Below, in pieces: positions 10,158-44,696 of a DNA stretch of 64,000 nt (position 1 is the stretch's first letter; each line of letters opens with the position of its first letter). Source of the DNA: a virus. The position numbers were made by a program, and so were the translations under genes. The stretch lies in the IMG/VR virus record IMGVR_UViG_3300027974_000020, positions 105,198 through 169,197 of that record. One strand, written 5' to 3'. The notes below the pieces were generated by a model. The model was not told the DNA's origin. It did no database searches and saw nothing but the letters and a program-made list of their open reading frames with translations.

Positions 10158-11609
10158 ATGAAGAATAAACCAACAACAAACAAGGAGGAAACGGTGTATA
10201 AAGACACTGTCTACGCAAAACTGAGAAGGGCACTTTACAATGTCATTCTCGAAGGTAAATTCATGCAAGAAACTCAATGGGACGAGAATGGACGATGCCA
10301 CATGGTTCAGACATTTGGTGACCGTGGAATTATTGCAACAATGCAACGAAAAGCAAATAACAAAGGATGGGTTGTATTCTTTACTTTGTGCATGTACAAG
10401 CACGAGCAAAATCACATTCCATTCATGCGTGATTTGAAAGTTAGATTGACTATCAATGAAACTCCATCTGGAGTAAGATTATTGTGGTTTGTTAATGGTA
10501 AGCCACAATGGATGGTAGAAAGTAGTCAAATGGCTTTCTCAAATAAATTCCATCATACTGGACATATAGTTCAAGAAGTTATTAATCAGATCAAGAGTAT
10601 ATATTCTCCTGAAGATTTTATACCGATCTTGAAGTACATGCAAAATCCAACATGCAAAGAGTATACTTTGTATGGCCTTAACCAAAGGTGGATGAAAAAG
10701 TTATCAGGTGGAACAAACCCTAGGCAAATCTTGAATAAAATCTATGGCAAAGATGGGCAGGATGGGTTGAGCAGAAATGCTTTTGGTTCAAATATTGGCA
10801 AAAAGAGTTTTGCTACATTTGCTATAGCAGCTGAGCTAGTGCGATATTTGAAATCATTTCCTACATCATTCTTTGATAAAATCATTCTTGATGACTTTGC
10901 AGTACAAGATATTGCATACTTGGGGATGATGTATCAAGATGTAACTTACATCCAATATTTCATTAAGTACTTTAATCACAGTAAAATCCAACAAGATTTT
11001 ATTAATGCGATTAATAACTTTGAAATGTATCCACATTCTGATTATGACATTTCAGATGCTACAGAACGTTTCTTTAGGATGAGCATTTGGCAGGAAGCAC
11101 GTGATACCGGCAGGATGTTCAAGGAAATAAAGAACAGAGCTGTTCGGAGAAACATCATTGCACTTAAAGGCACGGTTCAAGAAACCCATGACCTTGTCAC
11201 TATCGAGAATGCAAAGCTAGCTCGAGAAGATAAGCAAATCAAATACAGTGATAAGAGCCTTATCCTGGATGGTCAACAGATAACAGATAATATTATTTCT
11301 GTTCTTCCGAAGACAACGTTTGATTTAATATTATGGGGTTCACAACAGCACAACTGCATAGGTAGCTATGGAGATCGTGTTGCTCGTGGCACAGGTGCGA
11401 TTGTTGTTGGATTCAAAGATGTGACAACAGATACTTGGGTCGGCCATGCTGAACTCAATAACTATTTCAACAGCTTTGGAAGTTCTTGGACAATCATGCA
11501 GTTGAGGGGCAAATATAACTCAAACCTTGATGAGTCAGATGAAACTACTATTCGTTTGTTTCTGGACAACATACTCAATGCTTGGAATGAAGAGTTAGTA
11601 TTGCCATAA
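10158..11609 (+). CDS. PcfJ-domain protein
   Basis: C-terminal HD...LPKT..DL..WG..QHNCIGSY...QLRGKYN pattern typical of PcfJ-like domains. Confidence 0.75.
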   Translation: MKNKPTTNKEETVYKDTVYAKLRRALYNVILEGKFMQETQWDENGRCHMVQTFGDRGIIATMQRKANNKGWVVFFTLCMYKHEQNHIPFMRDLKVRLTINETPSGVRLLWFVNGKPQWMVESSQMAFSNKFHHTGHIVQEVINQIKSIYSPEDFIPILKYMQNPTCKEYTLYGLNQRWMKKLSGGTNPRQILNKIYGKDGQDGLSRNAFGSNIGKKSFATFAIAAELVRYLKSFPTSFFDKIILDDFAVQDIAYLGMMYQDVTYIQYFIKYFNHSKIQQDFINAINNFEMYPHSDYDISDATERFFRMSIWQEARDTGRMFKEIKNRAVRRNIIALKGTVQETHDLVTIENAKLAREDKQIKYSDKSLILDGQQITDNIISVLPKTTFDLILWGSQQHNCIGSYGDRVARGTGAIVVGFKDVTTDTWVGHAELNNYFNSFGSSWTIMQLRGKYNSNLDESDETTIRLFLDNILNAWNEELVLP

Positions 11610-11739: not shown

Positions 11740-14331
11740 ATGGAAGACCAACCGGTCAAACCGCCCGATGCAGCGGCCAATGCATCAACAAAGGAGAAGA
11801 AGATGCCAAAAGGTATCATCACTTTCCTGAAGGGGCGCTTTCGCGTTCTGACAAATAATCCAACTCCGAAAGAGGAGCAGGCATACAATTTGTCTCAGGA
11901 AACCAATAAGCCAGTCCCGTTTGGACGGATCAAGACTGTTACTGGATACAATTATGTCCAGGACGTCTACGCTGTTCAGACTGGTGACTTCACCTACTCC
12001 TTGTTGGAGAACAAACTTACTAAGCGGGGAATTAAGTTCCGTTTAGGAGTCGTCTCTAACAAGGATCTATCAGAGCTCGTAATCAAACACGAACTGTTCA
12101 GTCTTAATGACATGATCAGTAAGTGCAGGTTCGCATGGGCTAACGCATCATACACCTTCTTCCTGGAGGTTCAAGACAGTAAAGAAGCATCAAGCTTTGA
12201 TCTGTCTGATCTTGGGTTGGAGGTCTATGACTTCAAGAAGACCAGCAAACGTTTGCAGGAAGTGACTCGTATCACTCAAATGCATTCGTCTGGTCCGATT
12301 GGCAAACTTGATTATCGCATGTTGGAAGATCTTCCTGGTGAAGAACTTGCATATGATGGTCCAGTATTTGTCAGCGACTCATTTGCAGTGCGTTCTTGCT
12401 TTAGTATGACTGATGGTCCTGCTAAGAACAAGCACATTGCAATGATCAATCGCGGTAAGATCGGTCCAATGATTGGTCGTATTCTGATGGATCAAGGTGA
12501 AGTTAAGGGCCTTGTCCACGTTGTTCCACGACAACAGCTAGGTGCGGATGTGGTTTTCCACAAATCTGCTCTGAAGCGAGAGTTAAAGACTGACGATGGA
12601 CGTTGGCACTATACTGCCTTCAAACACAAGAACCTCCACACTGCTATGTGGGATATGCAAACTATGTTCAATAACCATACCTGGTTAATGACCAAAGAGC
12701 AATTCACACTGGACATGGAGTCTGTTATCACTGACTTTAACAAGTCTGTTGAGAATGGACAGCTTCCTGACTGGATTATCCACCAGGAAACTGACGGGCA
12801 CAAGGATGACTCAGCTCCACAAGTAGAGCATGTGACATCTGGCTGGAAGAAGAGTTACATCCGCTGGCAACAAGCTGGTTTGGATGTAACTGCATCTAGC
12901 AACCTCGTCTACATGGCTTTCGGATCATTGCTGAACCAAATGCGTTCTGCTTTGAAACGAAACACGTGGTGGGTTCCCATCTCTAATGCCTTTACGGCGA
13001 CAGTAACCACCTTCGATGCTTTGGAGGTCATGGGTAACTTTGAGCTGCCTCAGCACAAACGAGACATGGTGTTCTTTGATGAACGCTTTGGCTGTATTGT
13101 GCCGACTAAGCGGTTCATTGAGACTGCTGACCTTCATGACACGTGGGATCAGGACGGTGACCAAGCTAAGTTCATCCGCATTAAACTGTGGAGTTCTTCG
13201 CTTGTTATGAGCCTTGATGGATACAACCATCCGGAACTCAGGGAAACATATGTCATTCCTGCTGATTTGGTAGTGCCAAGCACTCCTGAAGAGGCAATTG
13301 ATATGTGTGTCGTTATCCGTTCACCAAACGGTCCTGGCGGTTACTCTATCGAACGGTTTGATGCTGAAACGATGCCATGGCTTCGTGTAGCGGAAGATCG
13401 TGTACAGGTAATTGATCTGGCCAAAGCACCAGCTGCAATGAGCACTTTGCTCGTTACAACTGAATGCGGTCAGATTAATAGCTCCACTACCTACAGCAAG
13501 GAATTGTTCAACCGGGATCATGCTCTTAATATGATCTTGGCACAGATGAATAACCCTGGTGTTGGTAGGTACGCTAATCTCATTATGGTTTGGGCTGCAA
13601 CATTTGGTCCAAGCTATCCTGATAAGTTGCCTGCAATTGGTAACGATGTCATTGACTGTGTTCAACAGACCGCAGACCTTGGTTCATTTGTTCAATTGCA
13701 AAGTGACTACTCAGAAATGGCTGAAAGCATTGCTCAGGCGATCATTGACAGCGGTTGTGGTATTGACCGTTATGTTCTTGAGACCCGGTTCCCTGCACTC
13801 AGCGATGAGACACGCCAAATGCTGGTAGATATTGCAGTAGACGGTCAGTTTACTGAGATGTACAACGCATACAATCAAACTATTACAAAGGTGCAAAATA
13901 TCGCATCCAAGGGTAGCTTTGATCTGCGTTTGACATCTGACACTCGTAACAAAGTGTACAATGCAATTCCAGCTATGAGGGAGTCAACCTCTGTTTGGTG
14001 CCGTGGCATCTGGTCAAAGTATGAACGTGAACTCTCAAGGGTTGACGGTAAGTACTCTGAACTGTCCAAGAATACCAATCGCTTTGTAAAGATGTCTGCT
14101 GTTGCACAACGCACAGAAGAAATCTCTACCATCATTGGTGCACTGTTGGATGAAGTCAAGGCAACATCACATCCTGAGCTCTATGCTCTTGCTATCTACC
14201 GTTGGATCATTGATCCGGAACTGACTCGCAGTAAGTATGGCGTGTCTGACCGTATCATCTTCCAGAACGGAATAGACGGACAAGAGACCATCATGGATCT
14301 CATTATCACAGCAATCAAGGACCTGAAGTAA
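11740..14331 (+). CDS. single-subunit two-barrel RNA polymerase (YonO / RNAi-RdRP-like), paralog 1
   Basis: DGPVFVS, GRILMDQGEVKGLV..SALK (DPBB-A lysines), DQDGD (13147-13161), IRSP, GVGRYAN and IDC motifs. Confidence 0.8.
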   Translation: MEDQPVKPPDAAANASTKEKKMPKGIITFLKGRFRVLTNNPTPKEEQAYNLSQETNKPVPFGRIKTVTGYNYVQDVYAVQTGDFTYSLLENKLTKRGIKFRLGVVSNKDLSELVIKHELFSLNDMISKCRFAWANASYTFFLEVQDSKEASSFDLSDLGLEVYDFKKTSKRLQEVTRITQMHSSGPIGKLDYRMLEDLPGEELAYDGPVFVSDSFAVRSCFSMTDGPAKNKHIAMINRGKIGPMIGRILMDQGEVKGLVHVVPRQQLGADVVFHKSALKRELKTDDGRWHYTAFKHKNLHTAMWDMQTMFNNHTWLMTKEQFTLDMESVITDFNKSVENGQLPDWIIHQETDGHKDDSAPQVEHVTSGWKKSYIRWQQAGLDVTASSNLVYMAFGSLLNQMRSALKRNTWWVPISNAFTATVTTFDALEVMGNFELPQHKRDMVFFDERFGCIVPTKRFIETADLHDTWDQDGDQAKFIRIKLWSSSLVMSLDGYNHPELRETYVIPADLVVPSTPEEAIDMCVVIRSPNGPGGYSIERFDAETMPWLRVAEDRVQVIDLAKAPAAMSTLLVTTECGQINSSTTYSKELFNRDHALNMILAQMNNPGVGRYANLIMVWAATFGPSYPDKLPAIGNDVIDCVQQTADLGSFVQLQSDYSEMAESIAQAIIDSGCGIDRYVLETRFPALSDETRQMLVDIAVDGQFTEMYNAYNQTITKVQNIASKGSFDLRLTSDTRNKVYNAIPAMRESTSVWCRGIWSKYERELSRVDGKYSELSKNTNRFVKMSAVAQRTEEISTIIGALLDEVKATSHPELYALAIYRWIIDPELTRSKYGVSDRIIFQNGIDGQETIMDLIITAIKDLK

Positions 14332-14349
14332 TAGGTTCTTCCGAGTAAA

Positions 14350-14452
14350 GAGAGAGAGCCCCTGGGGAAACCTAGGGGTTCTTTCTTTATTCCTAGATCC
14401 TAGGTCTTTAGTTATTATATTAATATTTTTTTTTCCTAGATCTTAGGACCCT
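14350..14452 (+). promoter_or_regulatory. terminator followed by two variant CTAG-N6-GG elements (copies 14 and 15)
   Basis: GCCCCTGGG-GAAA-CCTAGGGGTT hairpin, then TTCCTAG-ATCCTA-GG and TTCCTAG-ATCTTA-GG. Confidence 0.65.
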
Positions 14453-14675
14453 ATTCTAAAGTCACTCGGCGATTGCTTAGCCCTCAGACTCAAAATAGGC
14501 TGAGATTCTAAATCCTCTTTGGCTCATTTCCCTTGACGGGCTTGGGCTAAAAGGGGGGATTTTCTCTCTTCTTTGCTCAATGTCCCTAACGGGTCTGGGC
14601 CAAAAGGGGGGGATTATTCCCTATTATAAAGGCATTCTTGGGAGCCTACAATTCCAAGAGAACAAGGAGACGATT

Positions 14676-15188
14676 GTGACACTCACAGTCTACATTAATA
14701 CCCCTCCTGCTGTTCGGGAGAACAAGACCACAGGTGAGACTTTCTTCTCATCTTTGGTTGGCGTTTCTGCCGAACTCAGGGCAACACTTCCACAGGTGGA
14801 CGTTCTCAACTGGAACATCCAAAAGTGGGAAAACCTCACGCTTGACGCTGAAGTTGCTGCACTCATTGGCTACACCGCTGATGAGCCAGTTGACGAAGTG
14901 GTCATTCCAAAGCACGAAGCCATTGACGCCTTCTTCCAATCTGCTGTTGCAGGTGGACTGAAGTTGGCAATCGTTTGTGACTCCGTCCAGCACGGGAAAG
15001 TCACTGAAGGTGTTAACCCTAACACTAACAAGAACGAGCGCCGTATGGCTATCTGGCCTGAAGGTGAGTTCAGCATTGAACTGTTCAAGCCGACTGCAAA
15101 GGCTAAAGTCAGTGCTGCTACGGCAGACCGCTTGCGTAACAACAAGCAAGAAACAGCAGTAACTTCGGACGGAGATGCACCGTTCTGA
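14676..15188 (+). CDS. hypothetical protein with SSB-like acidic C-terminal tail
   Basis: AAGGAG SD before GTG 14676; ends in SDGDAPF. Confidence 0.7.
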   Translation: MTLTVYINTPPAVRENKTTGETFFSSLVGVSAELRATLPQVDVLNWNIQKWENLTLDAEVAALIGYTADEPVDEVVIPKHEAIDAFFQSAVAGGLKLAIVCDSVQHGKVTEGVNPNTNKNERRMAIWPEGEFSIELFKPTAKAKVSAATADRLRNNKQETAVTSDGDAPF

Positions 15189-15213
15189 GTTGACTGCTCA
15201 TTCCCCAAGGTGT

Positions 15214-15263
15214 GGAGTGTGGGACATTTGCTTCGGCGAGTGTCCTACACTCCCCCTTTTTTT
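15214..15263 (+). terminator. intrinsic terminator
   Basis: GGAGTGTGGGACA...cTTCGg...TGTCCTACACTCC, followed by a T-run. Confidence 0.75.
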
Positions 15264-15490
15264 ACTTAGTTCCTCGGCTACTCCTACGGAGTAGGCCTCA
15301 GAACTAATTCGCTGGCTGACGCCAGCTCAGACTCTTGCTATCCCCTCCTTGGATGTGCTAGCTCAGTAGTATAATAATATTGTATTACTGGGCTAGACAT
15401 TCTAAAAAAAAATTCAACTAGTACAATAGTCACCAAAACTCAACTACAAAAGGGGGGTTTTCTAAATATTCCTATCTTGAAAGGATTGTT

Positions 15491-15709
15491 ATGACATCAG
15501 AAGATACCGTATGGCACATCTCAAGTGCAATCATTGCTGCAATGTTTCCACCTAAATCATGGTGTGAAGAAGCAACCAACGATGAACTTGACAAAGCATT
15601 GTTCAGGGTCCTCAACAGTGAAGGGGAATCAAAAATCTCTCACATCAAAGGACTGAACAAGTTGGATGAAGTCCTTGCTACTCTTGCTAAAGAAGCAGGA
15701 ATAAAATAA
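15491..15709 (+). CDS. hypothetical protein
   Basis: AAGGA SD; stop overlaps the next start. Confidence 0.6.
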   Translation: MTSEDTVWHISSAIIAAMFPPKSWCEEATNDELDKALFRVLNSEGESKISHIKGLNKLDEVLATLAKEAGIK

Positions 15710-15930
15710 TGTCAACAATAAGAATTAACACAAACACGTGTTTGCATTGCAAGCAAGAAGGTTTCATCGAAATGTCAGAAGATGAATACAATCGAGGCAT
15801 CAATGCATTCAACGAAGGAGAATTAATTCAATGTGCATTCCCAGGTCTATCTGTAGATCAAAGGGAACAAGTCATTTCTGGAACTCATCCAGAGTGTTGG
15901 AATGAACTGTTCGCAGAAAAAGAACATTAG
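15709..15930 (+). CDS. small zinc-binding phage protein
   Basis: CLHC...IQCAFP...RE..ISGTHPECW. Confidence 0.7.
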   Translation: MSTIRINTNTCLHCKQEGFIEMSEDEYNRGINAFNEGELIQCAFPGLSVDQREQVISGTHPECWNELFAEKEH

Positions 15931-16210
15931 ATCTACGGGCATTTGTTTGTAAAAGCTGACCCTTTTTGGGTTGCGCAGACATTTGCGCCGTATACAGGTA
16001 ATCAACACCTGAAAACCCCTCGGTAGTCCTATCGAGATGAAGTTGATTATGGATAGACGAGCTATAGCGTCTTTAAACATTTAGGATAGCCTAGGCCACT
16101 GGTACAAGGGCGACACAAGAACACTGTCTGGTATATGCAGAAGAAGCGTTGTATCAATATACTTTTAAAAAATAAGACTAGTACCCTACGTAAAAGGGGG
16201 GAAGGGCAAT

Positions 16211-23562: not shown

Positions 23563-26124
23563 GTGTCACTAATCACATACAGACCAATTGTTCGGCTTCG
23601 CTCAGAAGCAAATGGGCCACTTCGCAGCATGAATGATTACCAGTTCGGATTTTACGATACTGGTTTTCTTCGTCAAGCTATGAAGTCTATCCCTAACGCA
23701 ACAAATTATCGAATGGCTACTATGCCCATTCCACAGAATCCACACGAAGCTCGGATTGCTGAACAGATTATTAAGCACCCCGATGTATGCTATGCCGTAG
23801 TTGATAAAAATAAGATTGCAATTGTTATCATAGAGAACAATCCAGGATGGTTGTCAATCTTTAAAGAAATGGGCTATGAAGTCTTTGCCGGCGATAAGAC
23901 TGGCAAACGACTCAAGACCTTTCATCGTCCAGCATTGTTGAACGCTCACTTTGAAAAAGATGAGATTAAAGTTCACGTTGCTGATTCAACAGACTATTGC
24001 TCATATGACTTTGAGAATGGAGAAGTTGCAAAACAATTTTGCGACCCATCCATTACTAAACGCCTTCTTGATGGCGGTTTTGTAATTTCTCGCAAGTTCG
24101 TTAAAAGAGCAATAGAAAATATTCCAATGTATCATCCAGAAGATACAACTGACAACAAAGAATATTATTATGATTGGCGTATTCGTAAGAAGCTTGTAAA
24201 GAATCTTATGAAAGCTCCAATCCTTAATGTTCGCATTGTCTTTGAAGGAGGCTTCCTCAAGGGCAATGCAATCGTTGTTGACGAAGAACAAATGCCAGAT
24301 GATATTGATATTATTACCAGTAGTGAAAATATTAAATCTGAAATAAAATATCACAATGGTTTTCAATTTCTGGCCGAACCTCAAGGTTCCCATGAACGAG
24401 TCATCACTGACGATCAAACTGTAATCAATTTGGATAATCTTTTCATCACATCCGATATGGATTTCTGGTTAACAGAAGAATATGAGAAGATGTTCAATGA
24501 TGCTATTAATTCTAAACTATTGACTAATTGGCAAGAAATTTACAAACGTCAGTTTCGTAATGTTGCATCAGCAGAAGATGAAGAAGCTAACTCTCGCATG
24601 TCCTATGTGGGATATCGTTGGGTGGCAAGCGGTATGAAAATTACCGATTCTCCATGGCTCTTTGAGACATTAGCAACAAGTCATGCAAAGCCATTTCAAA
24701 AGCGTATTCCAATTCCTTGCACAGTTTATGAGCAAGTAATTCCAGAATCTTTAGCTCGTGTGGCTGGCTATGACATTGATGTTGAGACAGAAACTATTCA
24801 GCGTATTAATGAACTTGGAGTTCATGTTGTCAATGATCTTGACTGGCTTGAGATGTATGAATCTCATGGCGGTCACGACGAGGACGACTACTTCAAATGC
24901 TTTTATCGCACAATGGTTGGTGGACAACAATTCGATGGCGAACGTGTCGTCATCATTTGTCGTTCTCCTAATGGCTATGGTGAGTATTCAATCTTTAGAT
25001 ATGTAGAAGGACAATGGTCTCCAACATGGCATAAAGCAGATGGTACTCCAATTCAGTTTCCTGAAGTTTCTGGACGTGGATGGCCAACTCGTTTGAGTGA
25101 AGCTATCTACCAGAATGAAGTTAAATATGACAAACTTCCATCTGAGTATCAAAATAAAGTAAAACCAAATGGTCATTATACTCCAGACGACGTTATCCAC
25201 GACATGCGTGTAGCTATGGGTGGTGGTAATGTCGGTGGATATGTAAACGCCGTTATGGCTCATTCCCTTGTTTTACACACTCATCGTCCAAACCAACTCT
25301 GCTCCATGGAGAAAGCAATCGACAAATGTATCAATCCAGATTATATCGAAGATGCTCTTGCTATCGATGCCGAAGCTAGAGCTATCGTTAGAGAAATCAT
25401 TGATTCTAAACAACCAATCGATTCTGAATTCTGGAGCCGCAGAGGCTTTTCACGTTATCTAAAAGATGGTGAAACAGTAGATCTTTTCGAAGGAAAGATG
25501 AGTCACATGAACACATTGTGTTCAGAAAAATATCGTGACTACTGTTCTCGAATTCGTGAATGGTCACAAGCAAATGCTGGCCCACCACAGATAGTTCATG
25601 ATCTTGGTAAGCGTTTGTATTTTCACGCACTGCCTATTGTAAGAAACTTTAGAAGTACTATTTATACAGTAAATACTTCTGAAGCTACTCAAGCAACAGG
25701 TACAATTGTTCGCAATTCTTGGGAAGAATTGTATTCTGATATTGTAAATATTGTTAATTCTTTTGATAGAGAAGAAGACAAGCATGATTTTATTATTGCT
25801 ATGTATTCTGTATCTTTAAAAGTACCAACTTCTAGTGGTAAAATAACAGATCAAATTGTTATGAATCGATTTGTATATCCTTATCTAGAAGCAGCTTTAC
25901 AATTTTATGGCATTGCAAATACCGTTGTATTTTCTCCTACCGAAGATGGAGACGTTGATATATTCAACGTTGAAAACAAAGAATGGAGATATCCTAATCC
26001 AAATGGAGATATTGTAGTTTACAATGATCCAATTGAATTTCAAAATGCTCATCGAATAGATAGCACAGTTGTTTTTACAACTCAAGAACCACCAGTCAGA
26101 CAATCTAATATATCCAAATATTAA
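23563..26124 (+). CDS. single-subunit two-barrel RNA polymerase-like protein, paralog 2
   Basis: DGGFVIS, VRIVFEGGFLKGN..SENIK, GGHDEDDYF (24868-24894), CRSPNG, NVGGYVN and AIDK motifs, colinear with paralog 1; AGGAGG SD with GTG start. Confidence 0.78.
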   Translation: MSLITYRPIVRLRSEANGPLRSMNDYQFGFYDTGFLRQAMKSIPNATNYRMATMPIPQNPHEARIAEQIIKHPDVCYAVVDKNKIAIVIIENNPGWLSIFKEMGYEVFAGDKTGKRLKTFHRPALLNAHFEKDEIKVHVADSTDYCSYDFENGEVAKQFCDPSITKRLLDGGFVISRKFVKRAIENIPMYHPEDTTDNKEYYYDWRIRKKLVKNLMKAPILNVRIVFEGGFLKGNAIVVDEEQMPDDIDIITSSENIKSEIKYHNGFQFLAEPQGSHERVITDDQTVINLDNLFITSDMDFWLTEEYEKMFNDAINSKLLTNWQEIYKRQFRNVASAEDEEANSRMSYVGYRWVASGMKITDSPWLFETLATSHAKPFQKRIPIPCTVYEQVIPESLARVAGYDIDVETETIQRINELGVHVVNDLDWLEMYESHGGHDEDDYFKCFYRTMVGGQQFDGERVVIICRSPNGYGEYSIFRYVEGQWSPTWHKADGTPIQFPEVSGRGWPTRLSEAIYQNEVKYDKLPSEYQNKVKPNGHYTPDDVIHDMRVAMGGGNVGGYVNAVMAHSLVLHTHRPNQLCSMEKAIDKCINPDYIEDALAIDAEARAIVREIIDSKQPIDSEFWSRRGFSRYLKDGETVDLFEGKMSHMNTLCSEKYRDYCSRIREWSQANAGPPQIVHDLGKRLYFHALPIVRNFRSTIYTVNTSEATQATGTIVRNSWEELYSDIVNIVNSFDREEDKHDFIIAMYSVSLKVPTSSGKITDQIVMNRFVYPYLEAALQFYGIANTVVFSPTEDGDVDIFNVENKEWRYPNPNGDIVVYNDPIEFQNAHRIDSTVVFTTQEPPVRQSNISKY

Positions 26125-27179: not shown

Positions 27180-27351
27180 ATTATGTCTTACTCAAACTCC
27201 CCAGAAAAAAAGCAAAAGCTTTATTGCTCAATTAAAGATAAAACTGTTATAGTGTACACTAAAACAGAACCACTTACCGATGAACAATTAGAAGACATGA
27301 TGGTAGATTCTTTACCACATGGATATACGGAACCTTTTATCTAAGGAAAAC

Positions 27352-29043
27352 ATGACTATAACATTACGACCATACCAAACAGAAGCACTGCAGTCTATTG
27401 TAGATTATCTTGAAAAAGGAATAAATAAACAACTAGTAGTGCTACCAACTGGTTCTGGTAAAACTGTAATATTTAGTCATATCCCTCAGATCATACCTAA
27501 TAGTTTACCAATGTTAGTATTAGCTCACCGTGGTGAGCTATTAATCCAAGCAAAAGATAAGATATTAATATCTAATCCTCGTCTTGATGTACAAACAGAA
27601 AAAGCAGAAGATACCGCAGAGCTTAATGGCGATGTCGTTGTAGCTTCTGTCCCCACTTTGGGAAGAGCAGATTCTAAAAGATTATCTAAATTCCCTAAAG
27701 ATTATTTTAAAACTATAATTGTTGATGAAGCACATCACGCTTCTGCTGAATCATATAGAAGAATTCTAGATTATTTTAAACCAAACTTGTTGCTTGGTGT
27801 AACTGCTACTCCTCAAAGATCCGATTCTGTTCGTCTTACAGATGTCTTTGATGAAATTGTATATTATAAAAATATAATTGATCTTATTCAAGAAGGTTAT
27901 CTTTGTAGACTAGTAGGATACAGAGTTAAAACAGACACCGATATATCAGAAGTGGAGACTTCACATGGCGACTACATGGCTTCCCAATTGGAAGATACGA
28001 TTAACACTCCTAGGCGCAATGCTACTGTTGTTAAGTCTTATCTTGAGTTTGCTCCGAACAAAAAAGCAATCGTATTCGCATCCGGAGTTGCTCACGCCAA
28101 AGACTTGGCCACATCCTTTGCGCAAAAGCAGATACCTGTACGAGTAGTACTAGGTGAAACATCAGATGAAGAAAGAAAAGAAATCTTTTCTAAATTCTCA
28201 TCTGGTGAAATTAAAGTAATTGTTAACGTAGGTGTGCTCACTGAAGGATTCGATGAACCCTCTGTCGAATCAATCATATTGGCTAGACCTACTAGATCTT
28301 CACTTCTTTATACTCAAATAGTAGGACGTGGTACACGTTTATTTGAAGGTAAAGAAAACTGCATTATCATAGATATTGCGGACATGACCAAAGGTAAAAA
28401 GCCTCTAGGTTTGCCAACCTTATTGGGCATGCCTGCAGATTTTGATTTGCAGGGTAGTGATCTAGTAGACATCTCTGAAAAATATAAAGAGCTTGAAGCT
28501 TATTGTCCGGGAGAAGCAGTACGTGTACTTTCTCCTGATGACATAGACTTAGCTTATAAGCGTATTGATCTCTTCATGCCTCCTCCACCAAATGAATTCA
28601 TTATGCAATATTCCAGCTTTGTCTGGGCTGAAATTGCAGAAGGTGAATATCACCTTGGATTAAATAATAATGAATCATTAAAGATTTTTGCTGATACTTT
28701 AGGTAGAATAGTTGTATCTCATACACAAAAAACTACTGCTGGTAATCCTCCAAACATAACTATTCTAGGTTATCCAGATGATATTCGAGAAGCATTTGCG
28801 CGAAGCGATAGATGGGTGATGAACAATCGTCCAGTCTCAGTAAATCTTATTAACAATACTGCTGCTTGGAGAACTGATTATCCAACTGATAAACAAGTTA
28901 AACTACTCAAGCGCATTGGTGTACCAGTTACGTCAGACATGACCAAAGGAACAGCAAGCAATATTATTTCTAAATATTACGAAGCTAATCCTAAACCAAA
29001 ATGGCTTGAAAACAAAATAACTTATAACAAAAAATGGAATTGA
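27352..29043 (+). CDS. SF2 DEAH helicase (Irc3/RadD-like)
   Basis: LRPYQ, PTGSGKT, DEAHH, TATP, EGFD and QIVGRGTR motifs; AAGGA SD before ATG 27352. Confidence 0.92.
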   Translation: MTITLRPYQTEALQSIVDYLEKGINKQLVVLPTGSGKTVIFSHIPQIIPNSLPMLVLAHRGELLIQAKDKILISNPRLDVQTEKAEDTAELNGDVVVASVPTLGRADSKRLSKFPKDYFKTIIVDEAHHASAESYRRILDYFKPNLLLGVTATPQRSDSVRLTDVFDEIVYYKNIIDLIQEGYLCRLVGYRVKTDTDISEVETSHGDYMASQLEDTINTPRRNATVVKSYLEFAPNKKAIVFASGVAHAKDLATSFAQKQIPVRVVLGETSDEERKEIFSKFSSGEIKVIVNVGVLTEGFDEPSVESIILARPTRSSLLYTQIVGRGTRLFEGKENCIIIDIADMTKGKKPLGLPTLLGMPADFDLQGSDLVDISEKYKELEAYCPGEAVRVLSPDDIDLAYKRIDLFMPPPPNEFIMQYSSFVWAEIAEGEYHLGLNNNESLKIFADTLGRIVVSHTQKTTAGNPPNITILGYPDDIREAFARSDRWVMNNRPVSVNLINNTAAWRTDYPTDKQVKLLKRIGVPVTSDMTKGTASNIISKYYEANPKPKWLENKITYNKKWN

Positions 29044-30753: not shown

Positions 30754-32163
30754 ATGAGAAAGTCTATTTCCTGGATTGTTTCCGCATCTTTGATCGGAAC
30801 ATTATTTTTTATAAACAGTCCTCAAGTTGATGCTAAGGTATCAATGGACGTAATGCAGGCCACTGGTCCTGTACAGTTTAAATTAAATTTAACTAAAGCT
30901 ATTCCTTACATCTCTGCAAACATCCCGTACGATTCGGGATACAAGGGACAAGGTAGCTACGTAGTAGTTATTGATTCTGGTGTGCAATCTGATCACCCAT
31001 TCCTTGCAGGCAAAGTAGCTCTTGAGGCATGCTTTGCTCCTGTATGCCCTAACGGTACCACTAAGCAGATTGGACCGGGAGCTGCTAAACCAGTTCACTG
31101 GCACGGCACTCACGTAGCTGGAATTATTGCAGGTTCCAATGCAACCATGCACGGTGTTGCACCAGAGGCAAAGATTATTGCTGTCAATATCTTTAATGCT
31201 GCTGGTTCAACTTACGATGAAAATATTATTGAAGCACTTACGTGGGTTGATTCAATATCTTCTGAGTATAATATCGCAGCGATAAATATGTCTTTGGGTA
31301 CTTCTCAAGTATTTAAAACTTCATGCAATAATTATATTCCAGCACTTACATCTATTATCTCTACGCTTAAATCAAAAAATATTGCTACTGTTGTTGCCGC
31401 AGGAAACGGCTATGCATACGGCATGAGTTCTCCTGCGTGCATTACTGACACTGTTAGTGTGGCAGCAACTTATTCTGACAGAGATCTTATTACAAACTTT
31501 TCTAATGTTCATGAAGATACAGATCTTTCTGCTCCCGGTAGTGGAATAAATTCTTCAGATTCTTATTCAAGCTATCGTGTAGCTTCAGGTACATCTATGG
31601 CCGCACCAATGGTTGCTGGTTCATATGCTGTATATCGATCTAAATTTGGCATTCAATCAGTTGATAAAGTCACTTCTGATTTTAGAACTACTGGTATTGA
31701 TGCCAAAGATGATTATACTTCTGTGATTACAAAACGTATAGATTTTAAATCTTTATTTAGTACTGGTTTACCTCCAACTACTACAACAATACCTCCAACA
31801 ACAACAACTACTTTACCCGGAGCAACCACTACAACAACCACAACAATACCTCCAACGGATGAAGAAGTAGAGTTTGGTTTATCAATTCCTTATATTGTAT
31901 CTTTAAAGAAATATAAACCTAATACATCTTATATGTATGTAGATTTTGTTTATAGATACAATGAAACTAAATTATCTTCTTTCATTCTTGATTGTAGATA
32001 TAACAATTTGCCAAATGCTACAAAAGAAGTTTCAGACCGTAATAAAAATTATAATAATTATTTTATTAAAATTTCTACTGCGTCTATTCGTTCATGCAGA
32101 ATGGCTGCAGTAGCTTACGATGGTACAATCGGCCAATATAGTAAATTTGTTTTAGTTAAATAA
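30754..32163 (+). CDS. secreted subtilisin-like serine protease (S8) with Thr-rich linker
   Basis: Signal peptide; IDSG, HGTHVAG, AAGN and GTSMAAP catalytic motifs. Confidence 0.93.
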   Translation: MRKSISWIVSASLIGTLFFINSPQVDAKVSMDVMQATGPVQFKLNLTKAIPYISANIPYDSGYKGQGSYVVVIDSGVQSDHPFLAGKVALEACFAPVCPNGTTKQIGPGAAKPVHWHGTHVAGIIAGSNATMHGVAPEAKIIAVNIFNAAGSTYDENIIEALTWVDSISSEYNIAAINMSLGTSQVFKTSCNNYIPALTSIISTLKSKNIATVVAAGNGYAYGMSSPACITDTVSVAATYSDRDLITNFSNVHEDTDLSAPGSGINSSDSYSSYRVASGTSMAAPMVAGSYAVYRSKFGIQSVDKVTSDFRTTGIDAKDDYTSVITKRIDFKSLFSTGLPPTTTTIPPTTTTTLPGATTTTTTTIPPTDEEVEFGLSIPYIVSLKKYKPNTSYMYVDFVYRYNETKLSSFILDCRYNNLPNATKEVSDRNKNYNNYFIKISTASIRSCRMAAVAYDGTIGQYSKFVLVK

Positions 32164-43094: not shown

Positions 43095-44696
43095 ATGCTC
43101 TTTAATCAAATAAAATTAGGCTATCCATCTTTATGGATTAAATCAACAGAGTTTGATAGATTAATTAATTCAATTGTTCAATATAATTTTAGAGAGTATT
43201 TTACAATTGATACTGAAAAAGGATTTTCTCAGTACATTGATGGATCTTGGAAACCAGTTCTTGTAGACATTCCAGATCCAGAACAGGGTGGGACTATATT
43301 AACTACCCCATTTGATTTGTCTTTGTGTTACGAATATATTAATAAATATATTGAATCTTCTAATAAACAAGTTAGTCTTATTATTAAAGTTTTTGGCAAG
43401 CCTGAATCAATAATGAATTATGTTCCTTTAATATCATCTCTCCAATCCAAGCACCGTAATATGTTTTGGAGTGATGAAATTGCAAGCTATCCTCAAATTA
43501 TATTTTTATCTTCTTTTGATGTTCCAGAAGATTATTCTTATTTATTTAAATCTTCTAATTTTGCATTTCCAAACGCGCAAGAATTATACCAAATCATTGA
43601 TCATATTAATGTTTCTTCTGAAGGCAAGTTTGTTGCTCAAGATTCTATTAAAGAAGTAGTTAGATCTGGTTTAGGTCTTAATGAATCTGAATTTATAGAT
43701 TATTGCTTACAGTCTGTAGTCGAAAATGGAACTGTTGATCCTAAATATATTTATGATAATAAAATGCGTTCCATTAAACAGCATGGAATTCTTGAAATTA
43801 TTAAGCCAACAATGTCTTTTGATAACATTGGTGGTTTAGATAATATTAAAGACATAATCAGAAGAACTGCTTTTCTACGCGCAAATAAAGATCAAGCTGA
43901 TAAGTTCGGGGTAGTTCCAATCCGCAGAGTATTGATGGTGGGTATACCTGGTACTGGTAAATCTGCTATTTGTCAAGCTACTGCTAACGAGCTTCAACTT
44001 GACCTTGCTAGAACTGGTATAAGCCAAGTAATGAATTCTTTTGTTGGTCAATCAGAAGCTAATATGCGTGCAGTATTTAATCAGATTAAAGCAATGAATC
44101 CTCTTTGTGTTTGGATTGACGAGTTTGGTCGCGACCTTTCTGGTGGTGCTTCTTCTGCTTCTGTTGACGCTGGCACTACAGACAGAGTTCATGGTGAGTT
44201 TTTGACTGGTCTTCAAGAGTTGCCAGAAGAAACATTTTTGATGTGTGCTGCCAATCAATTGGATAATCTTCGTCCAGAAATGTTACGCGCAGATAGATTT
44301 GATAAGATTATATTTGTTGGTATGCCTTCGCTTAATGAGAGATTAGATATTCTCAAAATTTATCTTAAAGAGATCAACACTGATCACCAATTTGATTATT
44401 ATGCTCTTGCAGAATCAACTGAATATTTTACCGGTGCAGAAATTTCTTCTTTAATTCGAGAAGTAAAATTCTTTGTTGTTTCTCAAGATTTTAGACCTAT
44501 TAATACTCAAGATATTATATCTTATGTTCCAAAAATTAGAAATACAATTTGGAACAAACACAGAGACATGGTTCAGTCTATGTATCAGTTCGCTCTCGAA
44601 CAATGGGACTGGGCCTCGACAGAACAATATAATGATGCTAATATGATTATATCTGGCAGATCTTCGGTATCCCCTGAAGTATCTTGGAAAATATAG
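43095..44696 (+). CDS. AAA+ ATPase (Ycf46/CDC48-like)
   Basis: IGGLDNIK; Walker A GIPGTGKS; Walker B VWIDE; SRH AAN...PEMLRADRFD. Confidence 0.9.
   Translation: MLFNQIKLGYPSLWIKSTEFDRLINSIVQYNFREYFTIDTEKGFSQYIDGSWKPVLVDIPDPEQGGTILTTPFDLSLCYEYINKYIESSNKQVSLIIKVFGKPESIMNYVPLISSLQSKHRNMFWSDEIASYPQIIFLSSFDVPEDYSYLFKSSNFAFPNAQELYQIIDHINVSSEGKFVAQDSIKEVVRSGLGLNESEFIDYCLQSVVENGTVDPKYIYDNKMRSIKQHGILEIIKPTMSFDNIGGLDNIKDIIRRTAFLRANKDQADKFGVVPIRRVLMVGIPGTGKSAICQATANELQLDLARTGISQVMNSFVGQSEANMRAVFNQIKAMNPLCVWIDEFGRDLSGGASSASVDAGTTDRVHGEFLTGLQELPEETFLMCAANQLDNLRPEMLRADRFDKIIFVGMPSLNERLDILKIYLKEINTDHQFDYYALAESTEYFTGAEISSLIREVKFFVVSQDFRPINTQDIISYVPKIRNTIWNKHRDMVQSMYQFALEQWDWASTEQYNDANMIISGRSSVSPEVSWKI

Follow-up and report, generated by a model that had tools for sequence, protein, structure and literature searches.

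A family of predicted two-barrel phage RNA polymerases in which the metal-binding loop precedes the R-x-P motif

Two polymerase genes in one phage record

The DNA analysed here is a stretch of 64,000 nucleotides (the window), which covers positions 105,198 to 169,197 of the IMG/VR virus record IMGVR_UViG_3300027974_000020. The record is 169,197 bases long, has an estimated completeness of 80% and comes from an uncultured phage of ~200 kb. Nearly all genes of the window lie on the + strand, among them two that are predicted to encode single-chain two-barrel RNA polymerases: P0001 (paralog 1, 863 aa, 11740..14331, + strand) and P0002 (paralog 2, 853 aa, 23563..26124, + strand). They are the only polymerase copies in the whole record. 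In both proteins the metal-binding Asp loop of the catalytic barrel comes before the R-x-P motif, which is the reverse of the order found in QDE-1, YonO, P23-45 gp64 and Rpb1.

P0001 and P0002 share 18% identity across 639 residues (E 2e-6), and a profile of the paralog-1 family retrieves P0158, a relative of paralog 2, with an E value of 2.6e-22. Judged by these sequence comparisons, the two are very distant paralogs.

Overall fold and domain architecture

The AlphaFold2 model of P0001, made from 31 relatives, is confident (pLDDT 87, pTM 0.85). The assignment of P0001 and P0002 to the single-chain two-barrel RNA polymerases is predicted from this model, because it matches plant RDR2 and Neurospora QDE-1 across about 600 residues; crAss-like gp66 is a weak match in the PDB. 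Both proteins would share the overall architecture of QDE-1, RDR2 and YonO, which leads from an auxiliary helix through barrel 1, a connector of helices and the catalytic barrel to bridge- and trigger-like helices. The two barrels flank the active site, with a fold like that of the solved members of the superfamily.

Barrel 1 (residues 180-296; 12277..12627, + strand) is a canonical double-psi beta-barrel (DPBB), verified by structure comparison, and the equivalent of the beta/Rpb2 barrel. It carries D206 (12355-12357), R247 (12478-12480) and K256 (12505-12507), all on the + strand. The connector between the barrels follows (residues 297-412; 12628..12975, + strand); in the model, DSSP gives it a single short strand (299-303), while the stretch between 304 and 412 is made up of helices. 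The catalytic barrel region, with its non-canonical motif order, spans residues 413-560 (12976..13419, + strand).

Eight residues are invariant in two-barrel polymerases, namely an Asp and two basic residues in barrel B and the Arg, the Pro and the Asp triad in barrel A (PMC2919709). Each of the two paralog families has all eight without exception, and we infer their spatial equivalence. What differs is the colinear arrangement of barrel A, in which R-x-P at the end of beta3 precedes DxDGD ahead of beta6 on a regular path from beta1 to beta6; this arrangement was not found in P0001 and P0002. In the proposed active site, which most likely works like that of every two-barrel polymerase, D470, D472 and D474 would hold Mg-A, with D206 of barrel 1 helping to hold Mg-B. 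R247 and K256 would contact the RNA 3' end and the phosphates of the nucleoside triphosphate (NTP), and R527-S-P529 would be the 'Pro-gate' loop, by which the 2'-OH of the incoming NTP and its minor groove are read.

Order and conservation of the catalytic motifs

The metal-binding loop of P0001 reads DQDGD (D470, D472 and D474; codons 470-474; 13147..13161, + strand), and VVIRSPNG begins at codon 524 (13309), so that RSPNG occupies residues 527-531. In P0002, the loop reads DEDD (codons 439-442; 24877..24888, + strand) and IICRSPNG begins at codon 464 (24952), which places RSPNG (R467-G471; 24961..24975, + strand) 28 residues past the first Asp. A sequence-only reading of the window had reported the motifs in this order, and the coordinates it gave are exact. 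It had set them against a known order of R-x-P before the Asp loop, which holds for QDE-1, yeast Rpb1, YonO and P23-45 gp64, and had seen no R-x-P in the expected place upstream. We agree on this point as well. The whole of P0001 contains only two R-x-P sequences, RSP at 527 and RFP at 683, and none lies anywhere upstream of DQDGD. In P0002, an RIP does occur upstream (at 381), but its Arg is not kept among the relatives of P0002 itself.

As a lone R-x-P says little, conservation was examined. A pattern search located both motifs in 291 full-length relatives, and in all 291 the Asp loop comes first; the gap to R-x-P measures 22-67 residues (median 27). The reversed motif order is confirmed as real, family-wide and well beyond chance.

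For the catalytic domain, we used an alignment of 146 sequences in which every pair is less than 80% identical and the mean column identity is 21%. Only D470, D472, D474, R527 and P529 are invariant (146/146). N530 and G533 are kept in at least 90% of the sequences (N in 133/146). The majority form of the Asp loop is DxDD (112/146), and the Gly of DxDGD is present in 34/146. Upstream of the Asp loop there is no invariant Arg in the 146 domains; position 409 is K or R in 103/146 and R458 is found in 83/146. Within the P0001 family, D206, R247, K256, D470, D472, D474, R527 and P529 are invariant, and within the P0002 family K115, R116, D170, G171, R224, K233, D439, D441, D442, R467 and P469.

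These conservation data bear on a reading that would leave the barrel canonical. Multisubunit polymerases have a segment behind the catalytic loop that reads ILSPANGEP in E. coli beta' and IVSPQSNKP in Rpb1. RSPNG could be such a post-catalytic 'h-h-S-P-x-x-G-x-P ... D' segment instead of a Pro-gate, and the active-site Arg would then come from elsewhere or be dispensable. The motifs have a superficial likeness to these sequences, a conserved Asp (D541) follows at a similar spacing, and the yeast mutant rpb1-R446A is without a growth defect (PMC2919709). However, an Arg is lacking from the multisubunit segment, while all 146 domains have R527 and P529, and no upstream Arg is invariant. The barrel strands needed for a canonical first half are also missing upstream of residue 413: the connector holds none, and the first half therefore cannot sit there. 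Finally, regular DPBBs fail to match the isolated domain, and the alignment with Rpb1 stops near P0001 residue 510, short of RSPNG. We regard this reading as quite improbable.

The second R-x-P of P0001 belongs to an element of its own, D676-P686 (window 13765-13797), which has the consensus VD...TRxP and lies in a helical region past the barrel. D676 and R683 are invariant throughout the paralog-1 family. The element is possibly a counterpart of the trigger-loop region ('AVD' motif) of RNA-dependent RNA polymerases (RdRPs).

An unannotated family

A word-index search yielded 77 clusters (90% identity) for P0001 and 226 for P0002, and an exhaustive profile search, clustered at 50% identity, yielded 353. 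No match bears a polymerase name or a polymerase Pfam family. The sole Pfam family on record among the matches is PF08719, on three N-terminally extended relatives.

Profile searches miss the family, as the sequence-only reading had surmised. Neither Pfam nor PHROGs gave a match for P0001 or P0002. PF05183 does not match the two proteins at E<=1, nor any of the 146 catalytic domains, and a Pfam scan of these domains found no polymerase family. Searches of the PDB sequences with phmmer and with the family profile gave no relevant match, tblastn against GenBank phages gave none, and the motif strings are absent from the supplementary alignments of PMC10770324. In hhalign, the family profiles reached a probability of <1% against YonO and likewise against P23-45 gp64. 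Language-model features resemble those of PF05183-bearing clusters with scores of 0.88-0.90, which we take as a lead only.

Nine relatives stand out (P0050, P0054, P0066, P0242, P0244, P0255, P0263, P0295 and P0316). Some of them have PF08719 ('ribA/ribD-fused' in the source) at the N-terminus, and others have 1400-1975 residues, with the polymerase part C-terminal or central. These proteins may be fusions, perhaps virion-borne forms.

A tight hairpin joins the Asp loop to the R-x-P strand

A model of the isolated domain 403-595, made with the 146 sequences, is very confident (pLDDT 93). It has no match above TM 0.30 in the ESM Atlas. Order-dependent aligners recognise barrel 1 as a regular DPBB but not the isolated catalytic domain. 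The only order-dependent structural matches of the latter are to the multisubunit beta'/Rpb1 barrel, from beta1 through the Asp loop; these are weak and available as ranges only.

The strand past the Asp loop (residues 475-484; 13162..13191, + strand; from DSSP and coevolution) is taken as beta6. Strand 520-526 with the following RSPNG (R527, P529; 13297..13332, + strand) is taken as beta3 and the Pro-gate loop. Between them lies a subfamily-specific insertion at the hairpin tip (residues 485-519; 13192..13296, + strand), which is missing in P0002 and in most distant relatives. In P0002 and most of the 146 relatives, only about 8-14 residues lead from the Asp-loop strand to the RSP strand.

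Coevolution was analysed by mean-field and pseudolikelihood direct coupling analysis (DCA) with about 140 effective sequences; a third word-index search to enlarge the alignment added only four. Strands 475-484 and 517-527 are connected by an antiparallel ladder with the register i+j=1001 (z 5.7). It extends into both loops, where D474 is paired with R527. The strands 475-484 and 520-526 form a tight hairpin. The DCA signal for this hairpin is clear, that for other strand pairs only suggestive. The top coupling of the domain is D426-T456 (z 15), and D467/G534 is among the strongest (z 10).

At the latter pair, an acidic residue swaps place. The sequences have either D467 and G534 (38 and 35 of 146) or G467 and E534 (107 and 108 of 146), and the swap tracks DxDGD versus DxDD. 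In P0001, the codons lie at window 13138-13140 (D467) and 13339-13341 (G534). Contact between the RSP turn and the flank of the Asp loop would lead one to expect such a swap, and the acidic residue may be an additional ligand of a metal or of the NTP.

The short hairpin speaks against the explanation that the sequence-only reading had given for the reversed order. It had proposed a circular permutant with swapped pseudo-symmetric halves, so that the chain runs beta4-beta5-alpha2-DxDGD-beta6 and then beta1-beta2-alpha1-beta3-RxP. The motif order is indeed reversed, and a swap of halves is geometrically possible, as the halves of DPBBs are pseudo-symmetric and the termini are close in homodimeric DPBBs (PMC11258233). 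P0001, if taken alone, also has 35 residues (485-519) between the two strands. The proposal nevertheless does not fit, because beta6, beta1, beta2, alpha1 and beta3 would all have to find room between the Asp loop and R-x-P. The 35 residues are the subfamily insertion, and the 8-14 residues found elsewhere cannot hold beta1, beta2 and alpha1. However the order 1-2-3-4-5-6 is circularly permuted, the R-x-P strand never comes immediately after beta6. Moreover, the first strand after the connector behaves as beta1 and not as beta4: strand 413-424 directly follows the connector like beta1 of QDE-1, and the order-dependent alignments begin at beta1 of Rpb1/beta'. In the threading given below, the combination of 413-424 at beta4 with 475-484 at beta6, which was not scored separately, is absent from the twelve best assignments listed. 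Of the permuted barrel that had been proposed, the reversed order, the two-barrel polymerase fold and the lack of a regular DPBB match are retained, but the swap of halves is highly improbable.

Wiring of the catalytic barrel

Very probably, the wiring of the catalytic barrel departs from that in the described relatives. We favour a wiring in which the beta3/RSP/beta4 hairpin is transposed behind beta6, so that the residues are kept and the chain path is changed, and we consider this probable, although well short of certain. In terms of the model, the chain would run beta1 (413-424), beta2 (444-447), beta5 (451-454), alpha2 (456-461) and DxD(G)D, and then beta6 (475-484), beta3 (520-526) with RSP, and beta4 (535-540). 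The beta3/Pro-gate/beta4 hairpin would shift from between beta2 and beta5 to the end of the barrel, and one psi-loop would remain instead of two. Three canonical local connections would be kept: the beta1-beta2 crossing loop, the unit of beta5, alpha2, Asp loop and beta6, and beta3-RxP-beta4. Only two junctions would be new, and both would be tight hairpins that join strands which are already neighbours. Since beta6 and beta3 are antiparallel neighbours in the ordinary barrel, a hairpin joining them would keep the Arg beside the third Asp with the order reversed. This neighbourhood is consistent with Rpb1, in which R446 immediately adjoins an Asp of the MgA loop (PMC2919709).

The adjacency of strands was taken from barrel 1, where coevolution gives 3-4 (hairpin), 4 parallel to 2, 2-5, 5 parallel to 1, 1-6 and 6-3, with the orientations as expected. 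When the seven strands of the catalytic region were threaded onto this adjacency, the favoured wiring ranked 1st of 5040 with both DCA methods. The D426-T456 coupling fits a beta1-beta2 loop that crosses the top of beta5/alpha2. Two further assignments were set aside. One was a sequential DPBB of the regular kind in which the Asp loop precedes beta3' (rank 44-474), and the other placed strand 553-561 where beta1 would be (rank 125-147).

Several points count against the transposed hairpin. In a control, threading ranks the true assignment of barrel 1 only 50th of 20,160. Because of this weak control and the about 140 effective sequences, the first rank obtained for the catalytic barrel (margin 0.7 units) is suggestive only. 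Several strand pairs that are not adjacent reach a ladder z of 3-4. Among these is strand 553-561 with 517-527 (parallel, z 4.1), which the favoured wiring does not explain, and strand 553-561 together with helix 565-571 resembles a beta5-alpha2 unit in sequence. The exact strand assignment is inferred, and so is the placement of R527 near the NTP. The polymerase activity of P0001 and P0002 is likewise a prediction.

The unexplained strand and helix would be accommodated by another rewiring, in which beta1-beta2-alpha1...beta3-RSP-beta4-beta5(553-561)-alpha2(565-571) keep their canonical order, with an extra Asp loop and beta6 inserted at the alpha1-beta3 connection and the original C-terminal pair lost. 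Multisubunit polymerases (Rpb1, beta') do have large insertions at this connection. Strand 553-561 and helix 565-571 lie behind beta4, where beta5-alpha2 would be expected. Couplings connect the helix to residues beside the Asp loop and to the RSP loop (D467-M567, G534-M567, L465-A566), and the VIA ranges are equally compatible with this arrangement. However, the couplings D426-T456 and T424-F459 put helix 456-461 at that end of the barrel where strand 413-424 has its C-terminal end, which fits alpha2 and not alpha1. The 15 residues from strand 451-454 to the first Asp equal the canonical spacing of beta5, alpha2 and Asp loop. In the threading, such an arrangement ranks 28-44th or 498-654th, depending on the strand chosen as beta2. 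We consider an inserted Asp loop unlikely, though it deserves more weight than the two readings discussed above.

The transposed hairpin may also be phrased for the family as a whole, which is large (353 clusters or more at 50% identity) and lacks annotation. The strands of its catalytic barrel would fill the double-psi positions but be connected in another order, with a single psi-loop left. In this broad form, we give the statement somewhat less than an even chance.

Comparison with known polymerases

The canonical order is seen in each of the four relatives compared. QDE-1 has R962-S-P964 and then D1007-D1011 (PMC2919709, PMC9508822), R962-S963-P964 being its Pro-gate (PMC9508822), and yeast Rpb1 has R446/P448 and then a DFDGD motif numbered 479-483 (PMC2919709). 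In QDE-1 (PDB 2J7N, 7Y7P-7Y7T) and RDR2 (7W82, 7W84, 7EU0, 7ROZ), R-x-P lies about 45 residues before DxDGD, whereas in the P0001/P0002 family it lies 22-67 residues after the Asp loop. Sequence similarity to these enzymes is undetectable (no PF05183, no PDB profile match). They carry DxDGD, whereas most members of the family carry DxDD and are phage genes. The Pro-gate tripeptide of QDE-1 is RSP as in P0001 and P0002, and YonO has RSP as well. The connectors of QDE-1 and gp66 have ~140 residues and are comparable to that of P0001. The catalytic barrel of multisubunit beta'/Rpb1 has the same Asp triad and R-x-P residues as the family.

Among phage enzymes, YonO of Bacillus phage SPbeta is a single-chain two-barrel protein of ~840 aa with RSP and DxDGD, like the P0001/P0002 family, but its order is canonical (RSP, then DNDGD) and thus opposite. 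YonO is a processive DNA-dependent polymerase for the late SPbeta genes (PMC5467207). Gp64 of Thermus phage P23-45 also has the canonical order (RRP, then DYDGD), opposite to P0001 and P0002, and is much smaller (~590-620 aa). Template-dependent RNA synthesis has been shown for YonO (PMC5467207) and gp64 (PMC10770324). The Thermus phages (PMC10770324; PDB 8F72, 8F5M, 8H2M) have a non-virion polymerase (P23-45 gp64 / P74-26 gp62) and a tape-measure-fused virion polymerase, gp96. The virion polymerase gp66 of crAss-like phage phi14:2 (PDB 6VR4) has 2180 residues, of which ~1600 belong to unrelated domains.

P0001 and P0002 are probably DNA-dependent transcriptases and not enzymes of RNA interference. 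YonO would most likely be their functional counterpart, as a phage enzyme that transcribes a part of the genome of its phage. Because of the analogy with YonO and with the virion/non-virion pair of P23-45, we think it most likely that the two paralogs would serve different temporal classes among the genes of the phage itself.

Genes and base composition around the polymerases

In the vicinity of the polymerase genes, PHROG matches were found to a DNA helicase (27319-29043; E 6.5e-93), a protease (30754-32163; E 3.3e-46) and an ATPase-like family (43095-44696). For the open reading frame directly upstream of paralog 1 (10158-11609, 483 aa), the only matches are to PHROGs without a known function (phrog_16315, E 4e-13). 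At window 12001-16000, which lies over the paralog-1 gene, the G+C content is 0.452 compared with 0.29-0.41 across the rest of the window. A possible explanation of this elevated G+C is that the gene has a history of its own or belongs to another expression class.

Implications

The catalytic double-psi barrel is regarded as the most conserved part of transcription enzymes, and its residues are invariant across the superfamily (PMC2919709). We searched the open literature and found no paper on a two-barrel polymerase with the Asp loop first or with a rewired catalytic barrel. If the wiring proposed here is true, the active site of two-barrel polymerases tolerates rewiring, and the family would be a natural example of an enzyme on a rewired barrel. 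It would also offer a natural test case for ideas on the interconversion of cradle-loop barrels (PMC11258233). The different chain path would explain why abundant phage polymerases escape profile searches of Pfam, PHROG and PDB. The family would then represent an ancient lineage of RNA polymerases, apart from the known ones and not to be linked to them by sequence profiles. With its two divergent paralogs, it would join YonO, P23-45 and crAss as one more transcription system of phages. The family also matters for annotation, since the aquatic phages of about 200 kb which carry these genes now appear devoid of any RNA polymerase.

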